Assembly: GCA_964485575.1 (NCBI GenBank)
Contig: CAZAJO010000002.1
Span: 23,230-87,229, forward strand
From: an uncultured Gammaproteobacteria bacterium
GTDB lineage: Bacteria > Patescibacteriota > Microgenomatia > Levybacterales > GWA1-39-11
Direction: 5' to 3'
Length of the DNA stretch: 64,000 nt
Position numbers and translations under genes: made by a program. Below the pieces are notes generated by a model. The model did no database searches and was not told where the DNA came from. It worked only from the letters and a program-made list of their open reading frames with translations. Below are positions 1 to 23,630 of the stretch, one piece after another (the first letter of the stretch is position 1; the number at the start of each line of letters is the position of its first letter).

Positions 1-38
1 TACTTCCATTGTGGGGAATTGAGCAAAAAAATGCAAGA

Positions 39-7490: not shown

Positions 7491-8498
7491 ATGAGCTCTA
7501 TGCAGTTTAACTGGAAAGATTTGCCAAAGCCAATTTTTGCTCTCGCTCCTATGGAGGGGGTAACTGATACTGTTTTTCGGCAAGTTGTTGGAAGTCTTGC
7601 AGCACCTGATGTTTATTTTACTGAGTTTACGAATTGTGAAGGGATGATGTCTAAAGGAAGAGAAAAAGTCGGCAGACGTCTTATATATAGTGAAACTGAA
7701 AGGCCGCTTATCGCCCAAATCTGGGGACTTGATCCCAGTGCCTTCTTTGAAGTGAGTAAGCAAATAGTTGAGATGGGGTTTGATGGGATCGATTTGAATA
7801 TGGGATGCCCTGTCAGTGCTGTTGTAGCACGAGGCTCTTGCTCTGGCCTTATTGGCAACCCACCTTTAGCTAAAGAAATGATAGATGCAACAAAAAAAGG
7901 AGTCCAGTCCGCCGGCTGGCGGATTCCAGTCAGTGTTAAGACACGGATTGGACTGAAAAATATCACAACCGCGGAATGGATAGGATTTTTACTTGAACAG
8001 AATTTGGATGCACTTACCGTGCATCTTCGTACACAAAAGGAAATGTCAAATGTCCCGGCGCATTTTGATGAACTTGAAAAAATTGTAGAACTTCGTGACA
8101 AAATAGCCCCAAACACTGTCATTATTGCTAACGGAGACATCGTGTCCAAATCACAGGGAAAAGAATTGGTAGAAAAATACGGAATTGATGGAGTCATGAT
8201 AGGTCGAGGAGTATTTCATAATCCTTTTGTATTCGATGGAACAACAAACTACGAAGTTAAAACAGCAAACGAGAGAATAGAACTGCTAAAAAAACATATT
8301 GATATCTTTGAGAAAGTGTGGACCGTTGACCACCCCCTCACTGATAAAGAAATAGCAAAACTTTTTCCTCCACTCAAAAGGTTCTTTAAAATTTATATCA
8401 GCGGGTTTGAGGGCGCATCTGAATTGAGAGAAAAATTGATGTCCACCCATACGGTGGATGAGGTTAGACAAATTCTTTCAACAACTTATTCTGAATAA
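7491..8498 (+). CDS. dus: tRNA-dihydrouridine synthase
   Basis: The Dus-family N-terminus LPKPIFALAPMEGVTDTVFRQV is present. The catalytic-cysteine region reads DLNMGCP. The size is 335 aa. Confidence 0.7.
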   Translation: MSSMQFNWKDLPKPIFALAPMEGVTDTVFRQVVGSLAAPDVYFTEFTNCEGMMSKGREKVGRRLIYSETERPLIAQIWGLDPSAFFEVSKQIVEMGFDGIDLNMGCPVSAVVARGSCSGLIGNPPLAKEMIDATKKGVQSAGWRIPVSVKTRIGLKNITTAEWIGFLLEQNLDALTVHLRTQKEMSNVPAHFDELEKIVELRDKIAPNTVIIANGDIVSKSQGKELVEKYGIDGVMIGRGVFHNPFVFDGTTNYEVKTANERIELLKKHIDIFEKVWTVDHPLTDKEIAKLFPPLKRFFKIYISGFEGASELREKLMSTHTVDEVRQILSTTYSE

Positions 8499-8800
8499 GG
8501 AGGGTTCGCTTGGCGTTTTTTAGATGCTTCTAAAATAATCTCCCCTTGTGAATTCCACTTCCTAAGCCATTCTGGATTATTTAAGATAGAGGCCGATGGT
8601 TCTTGATCTGTTACCTGCTGTCTAAAATTCACCTCAAAACTATTAGCAAGATCTCTAAAAATTACAGGATCTGGAGGAGCGCATCCTTCATCAACAAGTG
8701 CTCCTGCAACGTAATAAGGTAAACCTACAACTAATTCTGAGGGATGAGGTATTTGAAGCATTCCTACTAATTCATCTACATTTTCTGCTTCTTTTCGCAT
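8486..8800 (-). CDS. hypothetical protein
   Basis: The ORF was trimmed to the internal Met (MRKEAENVDEL...). The longer track ORF (to 8881) would run through the tRNA-Lys gene. Confidence 0.3.
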   Translation of the reverse strand: MRKEAENVDELVGMLQIPHPSELVVGLPYYVAGALVDEGCAPPDPVIFRDLANSFEVNFRQQVTDQEPSASILNNPEWLRKWNSQGEIILEASKKRQANPPYSE

Positions 8801-8849
8801 TTCTTTAACTATTATACAAATGCTAAAACTTTTGTAAAGGGAAATTTTG

Positions 8850-8921
8850 TGATCCGGCAGAGATTCGAACTCTGAACCCAAAGCTTAAAAGGCTTTTGCT
8901 CTACCATTGAGCTACCGGACC
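8850..8921 (-). tRNA. tRNA-Lys (anticodon TTT)
   Basis: Reverse complement: GGTCCGGTAGCTCAATGGTAGAGCAAAAGCCTTTTAAGCTTTGGGTTCAGAGTTCGAATCTCTGCCGGATCA. The acceptor stem is 7 bp with one G-U. The anticodon stem AAAGC/GCTTT carries loop CTTTTAA. The T-arm GGTTCAGAGTTCGAATC is present. Confidence 0.75.
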
Positions 8922-8963
8922 AATTTTCAATTTGTCTGGGAGTTCAATGGCGAACGAAGTGTC

Positions 8964-8980
8964 TCATTGAGCTACCGGAC
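8964..8980. repeat. 17-nt direct repeat of the tRNA-Lys 5' end (acceptor + D-arm), 43 bp upstream of the tRNA
   Basis: cattgagctaccggacc at 8964-8980 is identical to 8905-8921, which is inside the tRNA. Confidence 0.7.
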
Positions 8981-9186
8981 CGAATGTACTCATGAGGGTC
9001 GGCCAAGGATGAGCTTGCTCAGACTTACCGGACTCTCAATAGCAAGGTTCGACACTGAAAAGCGTAGCTTTGTCATGCCGAACCGCACTATAAACGGTTC
9101 AACATCAGCTTTGTTCCACATAACTTCAATTGAACCGACCCTAATTTTACCAAATTTACCCTCATATAAGCAAATGGCCCGTCAAT

Positions 9187-9215
9187 TTGACAAAAACTGC
9201 AACATTTACCATACT
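9187..9215 (+). promoter_or_regulatory. putative sigma70-like promoter for the 9239 membrane-protein gene
   Basis: TTGACA (9187-9192), a 17-nt spacer, then CATACT. An SD-like AAGGGGAAGGAGGTG lies 6 nt before the ATG at 9239. Confidence 0.4.
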
Positions 9216-9238
9216 GGTAAGGGGAAGGAGGTGAGAAA

Positions 9239-9895
9239 ATGGACAGTGTAAACAACGTTTTGATAAGCACTTTAAATGGAAGTGTATCTACTATCTTCTC
9301 TTTTATTCCACGCTTCTTGTCCGGTTTTATAATTCTTCTGATTGGAATAATAATCGCTACTTTTTTAAGGCAACTTGTCCAAGAAGTTCTCAAATTCGTC
9401 AAATTTGAAGCATTTCTGAAAAAGTACGGCGTACCTGAATCAAAAGAGAATGCTCAGTGGAGTGTCATCATTGCTGAGATCGTCAGATGGTTTGTCATCA
9501 TCGTCTTTCTAGTACCGACAGCTGATGTTTGGGGACTTGGAAAATTTGTTGATGTTCTCAACAATCTACTTCTTTTCCTTCCAAACGTATTCATAGCAGT
9601 ATTGCTGCTTTTGGTTGGATTTGTCGTCTCAAAATTGGTGTATGACCTATTGATGGCTTCCGTTCGTGGACTTTCAAGAGATAGTGCAAGAACGATTGCG
9701 ATGGTAGGAAGATGGTCAGTACTCATCTTTGTGTTCTTAGTTGTGCTCAATCAACTAGGAATTGCAAGTGATCTCATACGGATTCTCTTTTCGGGCATAG
9801 TGGCAATGTTAGCTCTTGCTGGCGGTCTTGCTTTTGGTCTTGGAGGAAAGGAAGCAGCGAAGGACATCATAGACAAACTTCGTAAAAAGATCTAG
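9239..9895 (+). CDS. polytopic membrane protein (conserved TM-helix repeats, MscS-associated type)
   Basis: 218 aa with 5-6 hydrophobic helices. The repeated motif LLxFLPNVFIAVLLLLVGFVVSK resembles the conserved TM-helix repeat family. Confidence 0.4.
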   Translation: MDSVNNVLISTLNGSVSTIFSFIPRFLSGFIILLIGIIIATFLRQLVQEVLKFVKFEAFLKKYGVPESKENAQWSVIIAEIVRWFVIIVFLVPTADVWGLGKFVDVLNNLLLFLPNVFIAVLLLLVGFVVSKLVYDLLMASVRGLSRDSARTIAMVGRWSVLIFVFLVVLNQLGIASDLIRILFSGIVAMLALAGGLAFGLGGKEAAKDIIDKLRKKI

Positions 9896-9949
9896 TTTGT
9901 TGAGAATGAACTAGATTTTGTTATAATATAAGGCTGGTAAATCAAATAC

Positions 9950-10021
9950 GGCCCGTTCTTCTATCGGTTAGGAAACAGGGTTTTCATCCCTGTAGGGTGG
10001 GTTCGACTCCCACACGGGTCA
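9950..10021 (+). tRNA. tRNA-Glu (anticodon TTC)
   Basis: GGCCCGTTCTTCTATCGGTTAGGAAACAGGGTTTTCATCCCTGTAGGGTGGGTTCGACTCCCACACGGGTCA. The anticodon stem CAGGG/CCCTG carries loop TTTTCAT. The T-loop is GGTTCGACTCC. A TATAAT lies at 9922-9927. Confidence 0.75.
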
Positions 10022-10062
10022 CAATCTTGACAGAGAATTTTCAAAGTACTATTATTTGGTTA

Positions 10063-10608
10063 ATGACATCCCCAGACGCTCGAGAATCAAGCCAACAACC
10101 AACTACTCCAGAAGCAGGCATTCCACTTTACGAGCCTTCTACATCTTTGCCAGACACTCTTGCAAAAATTGACGGACTTCTTGCAAAACCTGCTGATGAG
10201 GTTACAAATAGAGATCTTTTTGAGGCCATTGCGGATTCTTTCGCAACTCGTTGTACCCAGTATAAAGATCAAGGTATCAAATGGATCGATCCGGAAACAG
10301 GAGCTGAGGATGATGTAGATTGGGAAAGGGAGGATGAAAAAGCCTTTTACTTCGAGGGGGACAGAAGAGTTGGGATATCATATGATCGAGACACTCATGA
10401 GCAAGCATGGATTGATTTACCTGAAGCACCAGTTATCGTATTCATGCCTGTCAAAGATGATACTTTGATTGTTTTGGAGGATTATTCGTCTCAAGAACCT
10501 GGTGGAGAAGTCCCTTCAAGACAAGTTGCATCACTTGGAGCAGCAATCAACACAAATGTCCTTCAAACCTTAGCAATGGGCTTAAAAAGTCCACTCGGAC
10601 CTATCTAG
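10063..10608 (+). CDS. hypothetical acidic protein
   Basis: Trimmed to the Met (MTSPDARESS...) downstream of tRNA-Glu. No recognisable motif. Asp/Glu-rich. Confidence 0.35.
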   Translation: MTSPDARESSQQPTTPEAGIPLYEPSTSLPDTLAKIDGLLAKPADEVTNRDLFEAIADSFATRCTQYKDQGIKWIDPETGAEDDVDWEREDEKAFYFEGDRRVGISYDRDTHEQAWIDLPEAPVIVFMPVKDDTLIVLEDYSSQEPGGEVPSRQVASLGAAINTNVLQTLAMGLKSPLGPI

Positions 10609-20395: not shown

Positions 20396-20713
20396 CTATG
20401 TCTCGATGTGTTTTATGGCTTTTAGCTTGTCACGCATCCTTGAATGCTTTTCGAAAGAACTGATAATGTCTTTGTGCCGTGAAAGAAGAGTCTCTCCATT
20501 GTTACTATTTGTAGGCTCTGAGAGAATAGTTCTAGTGTGATCTTGTCTTCCGGACCTGAAAAGAAGAACGACACCCATAACTAAAAGAATAAGAGCGATA
20601 ACAACTGAGATGACGGATAAATGTACTGGATCAGCCAGATTTATGTACAACAAGTAAAAACCAAAAATGGCAATTGTAAAGCTTAGGATGGTCTCAGAAA
20701 CCCTTCTTCTCAT
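20396..20713 (-). CDS. small membrane protein, paralog B (2 TM + charged tail)
   Basis: 105 aa. The C-terminal motif HSRMRDKLKAIKH parallels paralog A. Its stop abuts tRNA-Gly. Confidence 0.4.
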   Translation of the reverse strand: MRRRVSETILSFTIAIFGFYLLYINLADPVHLSVISVVIALILLVMGVVLLFRSGRQDHTRTILSEPTNSNNGETLLSRHKDIISSFEKHSRMRDKLKAIKHIET

Positions 20714-20714
20714 G

Positions 20715-20785
20715 AGCGGGGTACCAGAATCGAACTGGCTTCTCTACCTTGGGAAGGTAGCATACTACCGGTATACTAACCCCGC
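20715..20785 (-). tRNA. tRNA-Gly (anticodon CCC)
   Basis: Reverse complement: GCGGGGTTAGTATACCGGTAGTATGCTACCTTCCCAAGGTAGAGAAGCCAGTTCGATTCTGGTACCCCGCT. The acceptor stem GCGGGGT/ACCCCGC is perfect. The anticodon loop is TTCCCAA. Confidence 0.75.
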
Positions 20786-20819
20786 TTGTGCAAAAGTTTG
20801 TATAGCGGCAAGCTTTGGC

Positions 20820-20839
20820 TTACCGGTATACTAACCCCG
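20820..20839. repeat. 20-nt direct repeat of the tRNA-Gly 5' end, 34 bp upstream of the tRNA
   Basis: taccggtatactaaccccgc at 20820-20839 is identical to 20766-20785, which is inside the tRNA. It is flanked by inverted CTTGTG/CACAAG. Confidence 0.7.
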
Positions 20840-20919
20840 CGAACACAAGATATAGTATATCAAATAGCTTTTTGTAACTACTCTCGAAGAGAGCAACGTT
20901 CTTGCTGGAAGCAAGGTTG

Positions 20920-21546
20920 TTACGGTCTTGGAAGATTTAATACATTGCCTGAAAATATAAGTCCTGGATTTTCCAACTTATTCGTATTTGCAATGTCTGT
21001 CCATCTATACCCATCTCCATATGCTCTGACAGCGATATCCCAAAGATTATCATCCCTAACAACAGTGTAAGTTGCTCCAGTTATACTTGTGGCTCCAACA
21101 GGTGCTGCACCAGTTGTTGGTGGTGCCATAGTCTGTTGAGTCGACTCTTGCTGCATTACTACAGTTTTGTCGACAGTTGGAATAATAAGTTTGGTCCCGC
21201 TAGACAGCGCTTCTGGGCTTGTTATGTTATTTGCTTCCGCAATAAGGTGCCATTTAAATCCGTCGTTGTAGGATTTTTCTGCGATACTCCATAACGTTTC
21301 GCCTTCTTGTACCGTGTAACTGTTGTCATTGATTTTCTGAACTGTATTTTGTGTCATTGCTGCCTCATCATCAATTTGAGCTCTATTTTGCGAAAGAGAT
21401 TTGATGCCAAGCGCAATCACGACAAAAAGTACTACGACGGTGACGATCCCGTAAATCAAACTCTTGTAAGAATCTGATCCCTTCATAAGCGTTGTGACAC
21501 TAAATGATTCGTCTAATATTGATTGTTTTGTTTTCTTTGTAAGCAT
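20920..21546 (-). CDS. membrane-anchored protein with two LysM peptidoglycan-binding domains
   Basis: An N-terminal TM is followed by two LysM repeats: YTVQEGETLWSIAEKSY...GTKLIIP and YTVVRDDNLWDIAVRAY...GNVLNLP. The ORF was trimmed to the Met downstream of tRNA-Asp. Confidence 0.6.
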   Translation of the reverse strand: MLTKKTKQSILDESFSVTTLMKGSDSYKSLIYGIVTVVVLFVVIALGIKSLSQNRAQIDDEAAMTQNTVQKINDNSYTVQEGETLWSIAEKSYNDGFKWHLIAEANNITSPEALSSGTKLIIPTVDKTVVMQQESTQQTMAPPTTGAAPVGATSITGATYTVVRDDNLWDIAVRAYGDGYRWTDIANTNKLENPGLIFSGNVLNLPRP

Positions 21547-21616
21547 ACTATTACTCCTCTCTGGGCAAGAATGTGGCAGTGGACAGCGGGCATTGTGGCA
21601 GTGGCAGGTACTTTTG

Positions 21617-21690
21617 CGGGGTGAACGGGACTCAAACCCGCGACCTCTTCCGTGACAGGGAAGCGCTCTAATCAACTGAGCTACCACCCC
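21617..21690 (-). tRNA. tRNA-Asp (anticodon GTC)
   Basis: Reverse complement: GGGGTGGTAGCTCAGTTGATTAGAGCGCTTCCCTGTCACGGAAGAGGTCGCGGGTTTGAGTCCCGTTCACCCCG. The anticodon loop is CTGTCAC. Confidence 0.75.
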
Positions 21691-21860
21691 AAGAGTTGCA
21701 CTCTTGGGGTGGAGGAAGGATCTAAAAGATCCTGACTACCACCCTTGGGTGGCCCTTCCGAACTACCCTGAGACTAACAACTTCTGGTTCAGTTATTCTA
21801 CCATCCTCCTCACCGTCCAGTCAATAGCCTCAAAATCATTTTGTATGATATTATATTTTT

Positions 21861-23630
21861 ATGAAATCGTTTACGAATGAAGAGATTGCTAGACTCTTAA
21901 GGCAAGTCGCAGCTTCATATACAATTCAAAATGAGGCCAAATATAGATTTCAAATACTTGCATACCAAAAGGCTGCCGATTCTATTGAAACCGCTAGCAC
22001 AGAAATAAAAGACCTACTACAAGACAATGCATTAGACAAACTTGACGGTGTCGGAACAAGCATAAAAGGACATATCACAGAACTGTTTGAGAAAGGACAC
22101 GTTGAATACTTCGATTCCATTCTTGAGGGTGTTTCTCCTGCTGTATTCCCTCTTCTTGATATACCTTCTTTTGGACCCAAGAAGGCATATAAGATAGTTT
22201 CTGCATTTAGTCTGGATGATCCAAAAACAGTAATTACAGACGTATACAATTTAGCCAAAGAAGGTAAGATTGCACCTCTTGATAGCTTTGGTGACAAATC
22301 CCAAAGTGACATAATCCGTGCTATTGATGAATACAGATTAGGTAAAACTAAATCCTCAAGGATGATATTGGCTATGGCCATGGAGATTTCGGATACTATG
22401 CTTTCCTACCTCAAAAAAGACAAGAATGTCTTGGAAGCATACACGCTTGGCAGCCTCAGACGCATGAAGTCGACGACCGGAGACATCGATATTGCAGTCA
22501 GCTCAAACAACCCGAATGCAGTTCTGGACCATTTCAATGCATATCCATATAAAGACAGGATAATTGAACGTGGGGATATCACTTCTTCCATAATACTTTC
22601 GGGAAACAAGCAGATTGACCTTATGGTACTAAAGCCAGAGATGATGGGTTCTTTACTTCAACATTTCAGTGGAAGCAAAGAACATAACGTTCACCTTCGA
22701 GAATATGCCCTCAAAAAAGGCTATTCACTATCCGAGAAAGGCATAAAAATGAAGGATGGAACACTTAAGACTTTTGATAATGAAGAGAAATTTTACAATT
22801 TTCTTGGCTTAGACTTTGTGCCACCGGAACTTCGGGAGAACCAAGGGGAGATCGAAGCAGCAATAAAACACACTTTACCAAAACTAATAGAGCTAGACGA
22901 CATCAAGGGAGATTTTCATATACATTCGGATTATCCTATTGAGCCGAGTCATGATCTTGGCAAAAACTCAATGCAGGAAATGATAGATAGAGCTATTCAA
23001 TTGAAATACGAGTATCTAGGATTTTCAGAACACAATCCAAGTGTAGGTAACCATTCAAATGAACAAATTTTTTCTATACTTAAAAAAAGGTGGGAAAAAA
23101 TTGAACAACTTAAAGAGAGTAACAAAAGTATACATATAATTAATTTACTCGAAGTCGACATTTTAGCTAATGGGAAGCTTGCGCTTGATGATAAGGCTTT
23201 GGATCTGACAGACATGGTAATAGTGTCTATCCATAGCTCTTTTAGAACGCCAAAAAAAGAGATGACCAAAAGAATTCTGTCAGGATTGTCACATAAAAAA
23301 GCTAAAATCTTTGCCCATCCATCAGGACGACTCATCAATTCCAGAGACCCATATGAAGTGGACTGGAAAGAGTTATTCTCGTTTGTAAAGGAGAACAACA
23401 AAGCACTTGAGATCAACTCTTGGCCTACAAGGCTTGATCTGTCAGATACGCTTGTCAAAGAAGCAAAGGATATGGGAATACGCTTTGTAATTAACACAGA
23501 TAGTCATGCTACAGAACACATGGATAATATGCCATATGGAGTTGCTGTCGCCAGACGTGGATGGTGCGAAAAGAAAGATATCATAAATACACTTCCCTAC
23601 AAAGAACTTGCTGATTGGATCGCAAGTTAA
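21861..23630 (+). CDS. polX: family X DNA polymerase with C-terminal PHP phosphoesterase domain
   Basis: The Pol-beta-like nucleotidyltransferase motif [17 protein letters not shown] is present. The PHP histidine cluster reads DFHIHSDY...FSEHN. 589 aa. Confidence 0.7.

Follow-up and report, generated by a model that had tools for sequence, protein, structure and literature searches.

Direct and inverted copies of tRNA 5' ends in the leaders of three bacterial tRNA genes

Why should the first nucleotides of a tRNA gene be repeated in the DNA just ahead of it? The question is raised by the tRNA-Lys(UUU) gene at 8849..8921 (- strand; ARAGORN; Rfam tRNA, 73 bits; CCA not encoded) of the 64-kb window, the whole stretch of DNA analysed here, which comes from an uncultured member of the Patescibacteria (CPR). 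A sequence-only reading had reported that the first 17 nt of this tRNA recur upstream, and a repeat search recovered the two exact copies: CATTGAGCTACCGGACC on the + strand, at 8905-8921 as the 5' end of the tRNA itself (- strand; D2) and at 8965-8981 as an exact direct copy of tRNA positions 1-17 (- strand; D1), with a spacing of 60 nt and 43 nt between the two copies. D2 starts exactly at tRNA position +1. When up to 3 mismatches were allowed, the 17-mer occurred twice in the window, against 0.05 occurrences expected from shuffles. Six Logan assemblies, each made independently from a different sample, contained the identical leader apart from 4 SNPs that all fall outside the repeats, which rules out an assembly artefact. 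Although the direct repeat stood, an inverted copy of the same tRNA 5' end had been overlooked in each spacer; each unit runs from the direct copy D1 through a loop to the inverted copy I, and from there through a linker to D2, the real tRNA. Likewise, tRNA-Lys and tRNA-Gly had both been named correctly, but a degenerate version at tRNA-Asp (21616-21690) had been missed. Immediately 5' of three tRNA genes, the DNA is thus made up of direct and inverted copies of each tRNA's own first 7-20 nt; in the predicted precursor RNA these form hairpins specific to each tRNA, which relatives have in common, have lost or have rebuilt.

At tRNA-Lys, where all parts lie on the - strand, the gene is preceded by the linker AATTGAAAATT (8922..8932), itself a small palindrome (AATT GAA AATT) that falls within a long hairpin of the predicted fold. 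I, CCATTGAACTCCCAGACA (8933..8950), was recognized from the sequence and the predicted fold as an imperfect inverted copy of tRNA-Lys positions 1-18, with 14 of 18 positions matching, or 18 of 22 if the AATT of the linker is counted; in the minimum-free-energy fold it pairs with the 5' end of the tRNA, and the related loci L094, L102, L110 and L114 have derived mismatches in common with it. The loop that separates it from D1, AGACACTTCGTTCG (8951..8964), is an 'alpha' version common to L114. Beyond D1 lies an older unit 1 (8982..9033), made up of a degenerate 5' copy GTCCGGTAAG, an inner palindrome (TGAGC A AGCTCA), an inverted copy CTTGGCCGACC and a tail. Its copy of the tRNA-Lys 5' end, with 2 mismatches, is located 112 nt upstream, and its similarity to the tRNA 5' end was matched by 66 of 5000 shuffles; the unit is 96% identical to that of L094, where it abuts the old leader.

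Further upstream, comparison with relatives delimited H2 (9034..9092), a 59-nt hairpin insert (TATAGTGC GGTTCGG...CGAACC TTGCTAT..) whose outer part is common to the single insert of L093 and L096-98. Next upstream comes H1 (9093..9142), the ancestral leader hairpin plus GTT, with the invariant loop ATGTGGAACAA. Of the 9 leader lineages examined, 7 have H1 (L005 has a divergent hairpin and L114 lacks H1), and its alignment is 96% paired, with 5 pairs changed on both sides; neither the percentage paired nor the covariation score was attained by any of 500 shuffles. The similarity of the L093 insert to the tRNA 5' end was equalled by 3 of 5000 shuffles. That H1 and H2 are themselves older, decayed tRNA 5' copies was not established, with 334 and 2846 of 5000 shuffles, respectively, scoring equally. 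The putative tRNA-Lys promoter is a TG-extended -10 hexamer, TAAAAT (9144..9149), which precedes every repeat unit and whose distance from H1 is the same in all relatives; a consensus promoter scan did not pick it up. Rfam 15 returned only the four tRNAs above threshold over the window, and permissive searches (E <= 10) of 8700-9300 and 20650-21880 gave nothing credible, so that a known RNA upstream of tRNA-Lys (6S, SRP, RNase P, T-box or riboswitch) was rejected.

The arrangement reported for tRNA-Gly was confirmed. In the tRNA-Gly(CCC) gene (20714..20785, - strand; ARAGORN and Rfam), the first 20 nt (D2, 20766-20785) recur exactly 35 nt upstream, at 20821..20840 (D1, - strand; repeat search), and D1 starts 13 nt after the -10 hexamer TATACT (20854-20859). 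The spacer (20786..20820, - strand) is composed of AGC CAAA at the apex, the inverted copy GCTTGCCGCTATAC AAA CTTTTGC, and ACAA; the inverted copy, at 20790-20813, is predicted to form a 13-bp hairpin with D1, together with a G:U-rich GCGGGG/CTTTTGC pairing. One further Logan assembly contained the identical leader. At tRNA-Asp(GUC) (21616..21690, - strand; ARAGORN and Rfam), the leader module (21691..21752, - strand) reads I0 CCACCC, D1 GGGTGGTAGTCAGGATC, loop, I GATCCTTCCTCCACCCC, L' AAGAGT, GCA and L ACTCTT, with an inverted copy at 21706-21722. Here the leader makes a perfect hairpin with 13-nt arms (21684-21696 and 21700-21712), in which tRNA positions 1-7 serve as the 3' arm. The same architecture was found with different sequences in four other lineages: a perfect Watson-Crick hairpin of 13-15 bp spans +1 in 5 of 5 lineages, without a single G:U pair, and the sequence of the leader arms differs completely among the five. 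The hairpin is retained down to 66% identity of the LysM protein, and the longest comparable hairpin across +1 in 66 other tRNA contexts has at most 5 bp.

The repeat had been described as systematic, and it does occur at 3 of the 4 window tRNAs, at the same tRNAs in relatives and in scattered Saccharibacteria cases. The tRNA-Glu leader is plain in the window, as it is in L110 and L114. A general property of CPR tRNA leaders was rejected as an explanation: when leader/tRNA 5'-end duplex energies were computed for 58 CPR tRNA contexts, with mismatched tRNAs as controls, pairing to the own 5' end was not significantly stronger (p = 0.09). Absence of the repeat from close relatives, together with its restriction to these two tRNAs, had been taken beforehand as a sign of incidental duplication. 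The repeat is indeed missing from L001, the closest relative by flanking DNA (91% identity), yet present in more distant ones; it is thus not fixed by conservation, nor is it a one-off accident. The number of tRNA-Lys units in close relatives is 0, 1, 2 or 3, with leader types of 57, 115, 170 and 228 nt among genomes that are 85-91% identical in flanking DNA, and these jumps in size are clustered multi-nucleotide changes, lineage-specific with respect to sister lineages. Orthologous neighbours in the relatives are housekeeping genes; GC skew in the window was uninformative on replication orientation.

The relatives also indicate where new material entered. In L001, L092, L099, L100 and L003-5, H1 and GTT are followed directly by tRNA-Lys; in L094, L102 and L110 a 9- or 20-nt tRNA copy follows the same GTT, and the window carries further units. 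The outermost Lys copy stands at the former tRNA start, directly after the old leader. At tRNA-Gly the former start is 9-13 nt past the -10 box, and in five lineages the outermost copy lies 9-18 nt downstream of the -10 box TATACT. This position of the outermost copy shows that the additions went into the gene itself, within its 5' part, and that they brought a substitute tRNA 5' end with them. Some copies are decaying: D1 of L102 has a C-to-T change (C11 to T), the acceptor part is gone from L114, L043 is L033 in decayed form, and all that L105 retains is 13 nt from a different tRNA-Gly allele. Exchange of tRNA-Gly alleles has left fragments of the old 5' ends in place. Because L001 and L092/L099 have no units at all, and some copies decay elsewhere, the leader modules seem to be dispensable. 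We regard the architecture of the modules and their evolutionary dynamics as established.

How did the units arise? Reverse-complement copies of adjacent sequence at short range are found in the Lys, Gly and Asp leaders alike, and the loops and inner hairpins, read from the sequences, are composed of tRNA 5' sequence in either orientation. The spacer, being an inverted self-copy, rules out CRISPR-like insertion of foreign DNA, or insertion with target-site duplication. When the 171-nt Lys insert and the leaders of tRNA-Gly and tRNA-Asp were compared by BLAST with the window and 80 related loci (1.3 Mb), they matched only themselves and tRNA 5' ends, and a multi-copy small mobile element (MITE- or REP-like) is rejected for now. 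The modules were probably built by short-range fold-back (template-switch) DNA synthesis, in which a reverse-complement copy would be made and the original then re-copied, yielding direct-inverted-direct triplets and perfect palindromes in one step. Template switching is known to create such stems in a single event (Monttinen and Loytynoja 2022, PMC8794818). The absence of G:U pairs from the Asp palindromes fits generation at the DNA level at least as well as selection at the RNA level.

Other origins bear on the same observations. The sequence-only reading had listed a decayed tandem tRNA duplication and an attachment-site scar beside a leader element mimicking the tRNA 5' half, and neither of the former gained support. 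Decay of a tandem duplicate of the whole gene, which we consider extremely improbable, has a parallel in Saccharibacteria L010, where an upstream pseudo-copy keeps tRNA positions 1-18 and 20-30 in order. In the window, however, upstream similarity ends at tRNA positions 17-20, never passing the D-loop; the 55-60 nt spacing is shorter than one tRNA, and an inverted copy of the same 5' segment comes after the direct copy. No anticodon or T-arm remains were seen: matches of at least 12 nt (up to 2 mismatches) to positions beyond 20 were absent within 400 nt upstream, ARAGORN and Rfam called no second tRNA in the leaders, and none of the nine distinct tRNA-Lys leader types recovered held a full one. 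An att scar would mean that a mobile element entered the tRNA gene near its 5' end, at the D-loop, supplied a substitute for that end and later lost its body, leaving two att copies 35-43 nt apart. This would explain the identity from exactly +1 and the outer copy at the original gene start; the swapped tRNA-Gly alleles with their remaining 5' fragments also accord with it. The tRNA genes of this clade are moreover integration hot spots: in L097-L100 the neighbouring tRNA-Glu has a large serine recombinase gene beside its 3' end, and L093 has the 3'-end repeat only; these integrated elements are marked by a 15-17-nt repeat of the tRNA-Glu 3' end, 3.8-7.7 kb apart. We nevertheless judge a scar very unlikely. 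The absence of an integrase or transposase nearby, remarked on earlier, was borne out, a Pfam scan of the 40 window ORFs revealing no integrase, transposase or reverse transcriptase; the spacers, of local origin, consist largely of an inverted copy of the tRNA 5' end and not of foreign DNA, the repeat is on the 5' side, the units are stacked, and several independent 35-60-nt spacers are hardly to be expected from random deletions. In 1.5 Mb of loci, 3'-end repeats stood 90 nt to 7.7 kb apart, no 5' fragments occurred at kilobase distance, and a gene-sized element between 5' copies was never seen.

It is also conceivable, but in our estimate highly improbable, that D1 is the true 5' end, of a tRNA with a 55-60-nt D-loop insertion (after position 17-20) forming a long extra hairpin (I:D2) that is kept, or removed by some processing step. 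Such a reading accords with the minimum-free-energy fold of the window Lys precursor, in which D1 takes the 3' acceptor strand as its partner and D2 is bound by I, with the presence of every 5' element through the end of the D-loop in long-variant D1 copies, with the continued identity of D1 to D2, and with the sole D1 mutation in L102, which can still wobble-pair with G24. It is opposed by the L105 outer copy, which stems from a different allele and has no possible pairing partner in the present 3' strand, by the 9-nt short variants, which would place the insert between positions 9 and 10, and by the identical tRNA without insert in relatives, which shows that D2 gives a complete gene. A bulge-helix-bulge motif is impossible between direct repeats and none appeared in the predicted folds of the leaders; we know of no bacterial machinery that removes such inserts. 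Closer to the preferred origin is the view that the copies arose by the same mutations (fold-back template switching or slippage at highly transcribed tRNA 5' ends) and have no function: they would be debris, neutral or mildly deleterious, that a small genome with little repair can tolerate. Identity of D1 and D2 would then reflect recent birth with occasional gene conversion or unequal exchange, and unit-free relatives would result from precise loss through recombination between direct repeats. Patchy presence among close relatives, the decaying copies, the perfect Watson-Crick palindromes, the sporadic cases at unrelated Saccharibacteria tRNAs and the lack of a general leader-tRNA pairing signal across CPR all agree with this, and we think it possible, if rather unlikely.

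What speaks against pure debris are several signs of constraint. Between L094 and L110, D1, loop and I are identical at 45 of 49 positions (92%), whereas the adjacent 480 nt of flanking coding DNA are 74.5% identical and the linker agrees at 6 of 18 positions (33%). D1 at tRNA-Gly exactly follows its own tRNA, 20/20, in three different tRNA-Gly alleles, and in L109 an A9C change is present in both copies, D1 and tRNA. A junction motif, GGTAAG-N(3-25)-CTTG(G)CC, in which a T faces G, turns up at three different tRNAs; 1.57 Mb yielded 39 instances (11 distinct sequences) no farther than 150 nt upstream of a tRNA, and 4 at other places. The persistence of the Asp hairpin across lineages likewise sits poorly with debris. 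On the other hand, Lys I is imperfect and shows no covariation with D1, so that a pure model in which D1 sequesters I leaves the identity of D1 and D2 unexplained.

Among the explanations first offered, a leader mimicking the tRNA 5' half came closest to the evidence, except that the repeat is one arm of a direct-inverted-direct module. We propose a composite pre-tRNA leader of tRNA 5' self-copies, of fold-back origin, structured and possibly bistable, which would gate 5' maturation, and give this proposal as a whole an even chance of being right. We hypothesize that the module is transcribed from the promoter placed upstream of D1 by conservation; that pairing of I with D1 would leave the tRNA free for folding and RNase P cleavage, whereas pairing of I with the real 5' end would block the acceptor stem; and that D1, forming first during transcription, could act as a built-in competitor. 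The whole leader would in this way gate or safeguard 5' maturation. Predicted leader folds, with the inverted copies as pairing partners, are more stable than those of shuffles (z = -4.8 and -4.5). For all five Asp lineages and for Lys in the window (-103.2 vs -96.6), full precursors are predicted to gain 2-9 kcal/mol from pairing of I with the real 5' end, relative to separate folding of leader and tRNA, and the predicted difference between I:D2 and D1:I is 0-9 kcal/mol; these are nearest-neighbour energies, which ignore tRNA tertiary structure and modifications. In designed constructs, a hairpin that sequesters the leader and cleavage-site region does block RNase P (Ender et al. 2022, PMC8925977). 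A stronger version, which we put forward tentatively and consider unlikely, would make the leader a natural device of Patescibacteria, present at several tRNA genes and specific to each, in which copy and anti-copy are kept matched over the long term, either deciding whether and when the acceptor stem forms and RNase P acts or being released as an acceptor-stem minihelix RNA with its own role. Such a riboregulator of tRNA maturation would be self-templated, and template switching would account for both its birth and its repair.

Full-text literature searches turned up no account of leaders of this kind. If functional, they would be, to our knowledge, the first natural pre-tRNA leaders to control 5' maturation by mimicry and masking of the tRNA's own acceptor strand, a principle that we know so far only from designed RNase P riboswitches. 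If non-functional, they would still document cleanly, in nature, how fold-back template switching recurs at one defined site, with intermediate states preserved in related genomes, and would bear on the origin of structured RNAs and perfect stems. The stacked 5' fragments, the swapped tRNA-Gly alleles and the tRNA-bounded rearrangements mark tRNA genes as major hot spots of genome change in a group that has been little studied, and gene callers and att-site finders will mistake such repeats for mobile-element scars.

Several known systems resemble the leaders in part. As with the att repeats of integrative elements, a partial direct tRNA copy lies beside an intact tRNA and identity stops at a mature tRNA boundary; classical att repeats, however, comprise the 3' part, stand kilobases apart and enclose an integrase, as at tRNA-Glu in the relatives, whereas the leader repeats comprise the 5' part, running to the 5' gene end, 35-43 nt away, with an inverted self-copy as spacer and no recombinase. 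The split, permuted and intron-containing tRNA genes of archaea also have 5' segments set apart by extra helix-forming sequence, but here the genome is bacterial, the tRNA gene is complete and the extra copy is redundant. Acceptor-stem minihelices are substrates of RNase P, of the CCA-adding enzyme and of some aminoacyl-tRNA synthetases. The short-variant hairpins (GGTTCGGTAAG...CTTGGCCGGACC) are similar 11-12-bp helices that begin with the cognate acceptor-stem sequence and have the length of the acceptor/T-stem stack; unlike minihelices, the leader hairpins lack a T-loop, neither a discriminator nor CCA is consistently present, the leader helix is broken by inner hairpins, and recognition by any enzyme is putative.

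In designed RNase P riboswitches (PMC8925977), as in these leaders, a segment of the leader pairs around tRNA +1 in competition with an alternative leader hairpin, and the pairing that forms decides whether RNase P acts, which for the present leaders is a prediction. The designed versions are synthetic and contain a ligand-binding aptamer, neither an aptamer-like element nor a ligand being evident here, and the competitor in our case is a copy of the tRNA's own 5' end. The leaders also resemble the products of template-switch mutations (PMC8794818), which we compared alongside quasi-palindrome mutagenesis in bacteria: a nearby reverse-complement copy and a perfect stem arise in one event, stem sequence turns over while pairing stays perfect, and lineage-specific changes affect several nucleotides at once. 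The leaders described here differ from those cases in that a tRNA gene's first 7-23 nt are always what is copied, that a direct copy is added as well, giving the direct-inverted-direct order, that units are stacked ahead of the gene, and that three tRNAs show the arrangement, joined by a junction motif they have in common.

The window carries four tRNA genes, tRNA-Lys(UUU) (8849-8921, - strand), tRNA-Glu(UUC) (9950-10022, +), tRNA-Gly(CCC) (20714-20785, -) and tRNA-Asp(GUC) (21616-21690, -). The first 17 nt of tRNA-Lys, GGTCCGGTAGCTCAATG, recur exactly at 8965-8981 (-), 43 nt upstream in the sense of transcription; with up to three mismatches tolerated, this 17-mer has two matches in 64 kb, against 0.05 expected. 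The first 20 nt of tRNA-Gly likewise recur exactly at 20821-20840 (-), 35 nt upstream. Both repeats start at the mature tRNA +1, and the bases preceding the two copies are unlike. The Lys arrangement is unchanged in six independent assemblies from other samples and the Gly arrangement in one additional assembly; both, as pointed out in the sequence-only reading, are therefore a genuine feature of the organism. None of the four genes encodes its 3' CCA (gene ends at 8849, 20714, 21616 and 10022). In related genomes, ARAGORN calls reach through a CCA for tRNA-Lys in locus L110 and tRNA-Asp in L116; L111 shares the upstream tRNA-Lys sequence of L110, but has another 3' flank, without CCA.

The Lys and Gly spacers are non-arbitrary in predicted minus-strand folding. 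The Lys spacer contains tRNA positions 1-18 in inverted form at 8933-8950 (-; CCATTGAACTCCCAGACA), with 14 of 18 bases matching, or 18 of 22 once the small palindromic linker AATT GAA AATT (8922-8932, -) is counted. Within the Gly spacer (20786-20820, -), GCTTGCCGCTATAC...CTTTTGC is the distal repeat inverted, with a predicted 13-bp hairpin and a G:U-rich extension. The tRNA-Asp leader (21691-21752, -) is a worn version of this plan: a degenerate direct copy, GGGTGGTAGTCAGGATC, lies at 21728-21744, the inverted copy has CCACCCC at its end, and a perfect palindrome, AAGAGT GCA ACTCTT, means that CCACCCCAAGAGT pairs perfectly with ACTCTTGGGGTGG, tRNA bases 1-7 included. tRNA-Glu has an ordinary leader downstream of a TTGAGA-16-TATAAT promoter. 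Read from these sequences, the order of the module is direct copy (D1), loop, inverted copy (I), linker and real tRNA 5' end (D2), and the repeat is one arm of a direct-inverted-direct leader module at three tRNAs. Of the explanations offered earlier, a leader mimicking the tRNA 5' half comes nearest to the evidence, the repeat being one arm of this larger module.

Neighbouring proteins assign the window to the Patescibacteria (CPR), with Candidatus Levyibacteriota as the closest named relatives, and its content is chromosomal housekeeping DNA (Dus, BipA, GreA, CTP synthase, PolX, DnaE, GatAB, ATP synthase and cell-envelope genes). No integrase, transposase or reverse transcriptase was found among the 40 window ORFs scanned, in agreement with the earlier remark that no integrase or transposase lies nearby. 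Only tRNA families of Rfam matched in the window, the leaders being matchless even at permissive thresholds, and a known RNA family was rejected for the module on this ground. Divergent from tRNA-Asp, at a position conserved in relatives, lies the gene for a PHP-domain DNA polymerase of the PolX family (21861-23630, +); gap-filling polymerases are candidates for fold-back synthesis, and any link of this one to the modules would be purely speculative.

In the tRNA-Lys leader, the -10 box TAAAAT is common to all relatives examined. Right after the inferred promoter sits a hairpin, H1 (9093-9142, -), whose loop, ATGTGGAACAA, is invariant. Of the nine leader lineages examined, seven have H1, L005 has a divergent hairpin instead, and L114 lacks H1. 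Across the seven lineages, 96% of alignment cells are paired and five pairs are altered on both sides, compensatory changes which support the stem, and none of 500 shuffles attained the observed percentage paired or covariation score. H1, for which Rfam has no entry, has the look of a separate small structured element. Over tRNA-Lys and its leader lie mechanical ORFs of 104-131 aa (8907-9251, +; 9088-9402, -; 8486-8881, -), of which at least those covering the leader are likely to be spurious. Downstream of Dus, relatives have a called ORF of 104 aa.

GTT comes next after H1, and the sequence beyond it varies among genomes. The tRNA follows GTT directly in L001, L092, L099, L100 and L003-5 (leader of 57-65 nt); L093 and L096-98 carry a single 57-nt hairpin insert after GTT; L110 and L111 have one unit, its 20-nt copy immediately after GTT; L094 and L102-104 have two units, the first with a 9-nt copy behind GTT, the second with a 20-nt copy; and the window and its conspecifics have three, namely H2 (9034-9092, -), unit 1 (8982-9033, -) and the unit with the 17-nt copy, 228 nt in total. 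At intact junctions the outermost copy always lies at the original gene start, and the events are therefore insertions within the 5' part of the gene, each supplying a new 5' end and displacing the old one upstream. Unit count is patchy relative to relatedness, as judged by flanking-DNA identity to the window: 91% for L001 (no units), 86% for L094/L102 (two units) and 74-75% for L110 and L114 (one unit each, in two unlike versions). Recombination between D1 and D2 with precise loss would restore the simple leader, so that gain, loss and exchange are all plausible.

At tRNA-Gly, the outermost copy likewise takes the original start position, as judged from the promoter, and lies 9-18 nt past a -10 box, TATACT, in five lineages. 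The syntenic tRNA-Gly(CCC) exists as three quite unlike alleles; L105 (3180-3285) has a 13-nt 5' fragment of the window-type allele by the promoter, upstream of a different allele, and in L116 (2250-2429) a fragment of one allele is stacked with a 20-nt copy of another. It seems that the gene body has been exchanged more than once. At tRNA-Asp, +1 falls inside a perfect hairpin of 13-15 bp, all of them Watson-Crick pairs, in five lineages (window, 21684-21712, -; L105; L106; L109/L115; L116), down to 66% LysM protein identity, with tRNA positions 1-7 as its end in each; the leader halves, AAGAGT, AAAATTTTT, TCAAATCT, AGATTTTT and AAAAAC, are mutually unrelated. The longest +1-spanning hairpin in 66 other tRNA contexts was 5 bp. 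Right downstream of tRNA-Asp, L109 (~2194-2235) and L115 (~1346-1385) have a partial second copy of its anticodon-to-T-arm (GGTCACGGAAGAGGTCG...), which could be a 3'-side att-type remnant; an additional 105-aa ORF lies downstream of tRNA-Asp in L109.

Neither the window nor 80 related loci contain a further copy of the Lys insert. With gaps, the L093 insert reproduces tRNA positions 1-20 (3 of 5000 shuffles scored equally), and unit 1 is similar to the tRNA 5' end (66 of 5000). The inner hairpins can be read off as palindromes of D-arm sequence, and TGAGC A AGCTCA in unit 1 as tRNA AGCTCA plus its complement. D1 ends in GGTA in most variants (tRNA positions 6-9 or 17-20), after which come AG, a loop and CTTG(G)CC. 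In the 150 nt preceding a same-strand tRNA (Lys, Gly, Asp), GGTAAG-N(3-25)-CTTG(G)CC was found 39 times, as 11 distinct sequences, and elsewhere in 1.57 Mb four times, one of these being the same leader truncated at a contig end. Template switching consists of fold-back to the nascent or complementary strand, then return. Direct-inverted-direct triplets and fresh perfect palindromes are its expected products, from which we infer that the modules probably arose by short-range template switching. The leader module changes fast via local templated duplication. Template switching has been recorded making and mending RNA stems in one event (PMC8794818).

An attachment-site scar, as proposed earlier, would account for the boundary at +1, and mobile elements are indeed present at tRNAs in this clade. 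In relatives, the tRNA-Glu 3' end is repeated (15-17 nt) 3.8-7.7 kb downstream (L093, 2297-6172; L097, 10730-18275; L098; L099/L100, 10776-18576). A large serine recombinase gene lies beside tRNA-Glu in L097-L100 together with Mom-like or TraG/TrwB-like genes, the content one would expect from an integrated element; for L093 the 3'-end repeat alone was recorded, the gene content having been seen in L097-L100. These elements look nothing like the 35-43-nt self-derived spacers, no gene-sized element lies between 5' copies in 1.5 Mb, and no recombinase was found among the 40 window ORFs scanned; a classical att scar is not supported for the module and is very unlikely. The tandem duplication also offered earlier, leaving a decayed tRNA upstream, is barely credible: there is zero similarity past the D-loop, which excludes a tandem tRNA pseudogene. 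A tRNA whose true 5' end is D1, with an insert in the D-loop, could exist on thermodynamic grounds. L105 and the relatives having the identical tRNA without the insert contradict this reading, which must be considered highly improbable.

The window tRNA-Glu (9950-10022) has no such 3'-repeat element, and a Bro-N gene adjoins tRNA-Lys in L096-98. Compared with window positions 8849-10100, L092, L099 and L100 have behind tRNA-Lys the DNA that in the window lies behind tRNA-Glu, so that the Lys-MS channel-Glu block has the opposite orientation to its flanks and the break points fall at the 3' end of each tRNA; close relatives show at least five distinct contexts downstream of tRNA-Lys.

Whether the module is kept structure or neutral debris was weighed from both sides. 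For maintenance, we counted the D1-loop-I hairpin, identical at 45 of 49 positions between L094 and L110 (linker, 6 of 18; adjoining 480 nt, 74.5%), the identity of D1 to positions 1-20 of its own tRNA in three tRNA-Gly alleles (window, L109, L116), and a T-opposite-G in GGTA/TGCC recurring at three tRNAs. L109 has A9C in both Gly copies, with a spacer clearly homologous to that of the window, and all seven changes of L116 relative to the window are mirrored in D1 and tRNA. Against maintenance, we counted absence of the unit in close relatives, decay of D1 (a C-to-T change in L102, loss of the acceptor part in L114, a 13-nt remnant of another allele in L105, and in Saccharibacteria the worn L043 form of the L033 copy), I showing no covariation with D1, and zero G:U pairs in the Asp palindromes. 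Selection could have kept D1 and D2 evolving in concert, and so could gene conversion or unequal exchange.

The promoters, as deduced from conservation, precede D1, which should place D1 and I in the primary transcript, where I could pair either with D1 or with the real tRNA 5' end. Predicted energies, which leave out tertiary structure and modification, put pairing with the real 5' end ahead by 2-9 kcal/mol in each of the five Asp precursors, and give -103.2 kcal/mol for it versus -96.6 in the window Lys precursor, D1 there being predicted to pair with the 3' acceptor strand; for Gly and simple Lys leaders, the energies of both states are roughly the same. D1:I could form during transcription ahead of the tRNA and would hold I off it, D1 and the tRNA's own 5' strand competing for the anti-copy I. 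RNase P is blocked in designed constructs when a hairpin hides the leader/cleavage-site region, and release brings processing back (PMC8925977). Given the alternative pairing of I and this precedent, a self-templated competitor leader is our best account, in which competition by D1 may control or safeguard both the forming of the acceptor stem and the cut by RNase P at 8921/8922.

Of 63 distinct tRNA contexts, 9 have tRNA 1-7 exactly copied no more than 150 nt upstream, against 0.85% for mismatched tRNA/leader pairs, and none has it downstream; 5 of the 63 have the inverted 7-mer upstream (versus 0.8%), in a sample enriched for fetched Lys, Gly and Asp relatives, with counts that are not independent. 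Independent cases occur in Saccharibacteria, at tRNA-Leu in L010 (16529-16757; 18 nt), at tRNA-Gln in L017 (1637-1891; 15 nt), and in L033 (849-1046; 22 nt); these copies are exact, start at +1, and lie 100-170 nt upstream, right after a -10-like box, with a perfect palindrome unrelated to the tRNA coming next. The copy in L043 (853-1040) is a decayed form of that in L033. The conservation signals hint at a natural device hiding the tRNA's own 5' end. Compared with known systems, the module counts as a variant of both template-switch-born hairpins and structured pre-tRNA leaders.
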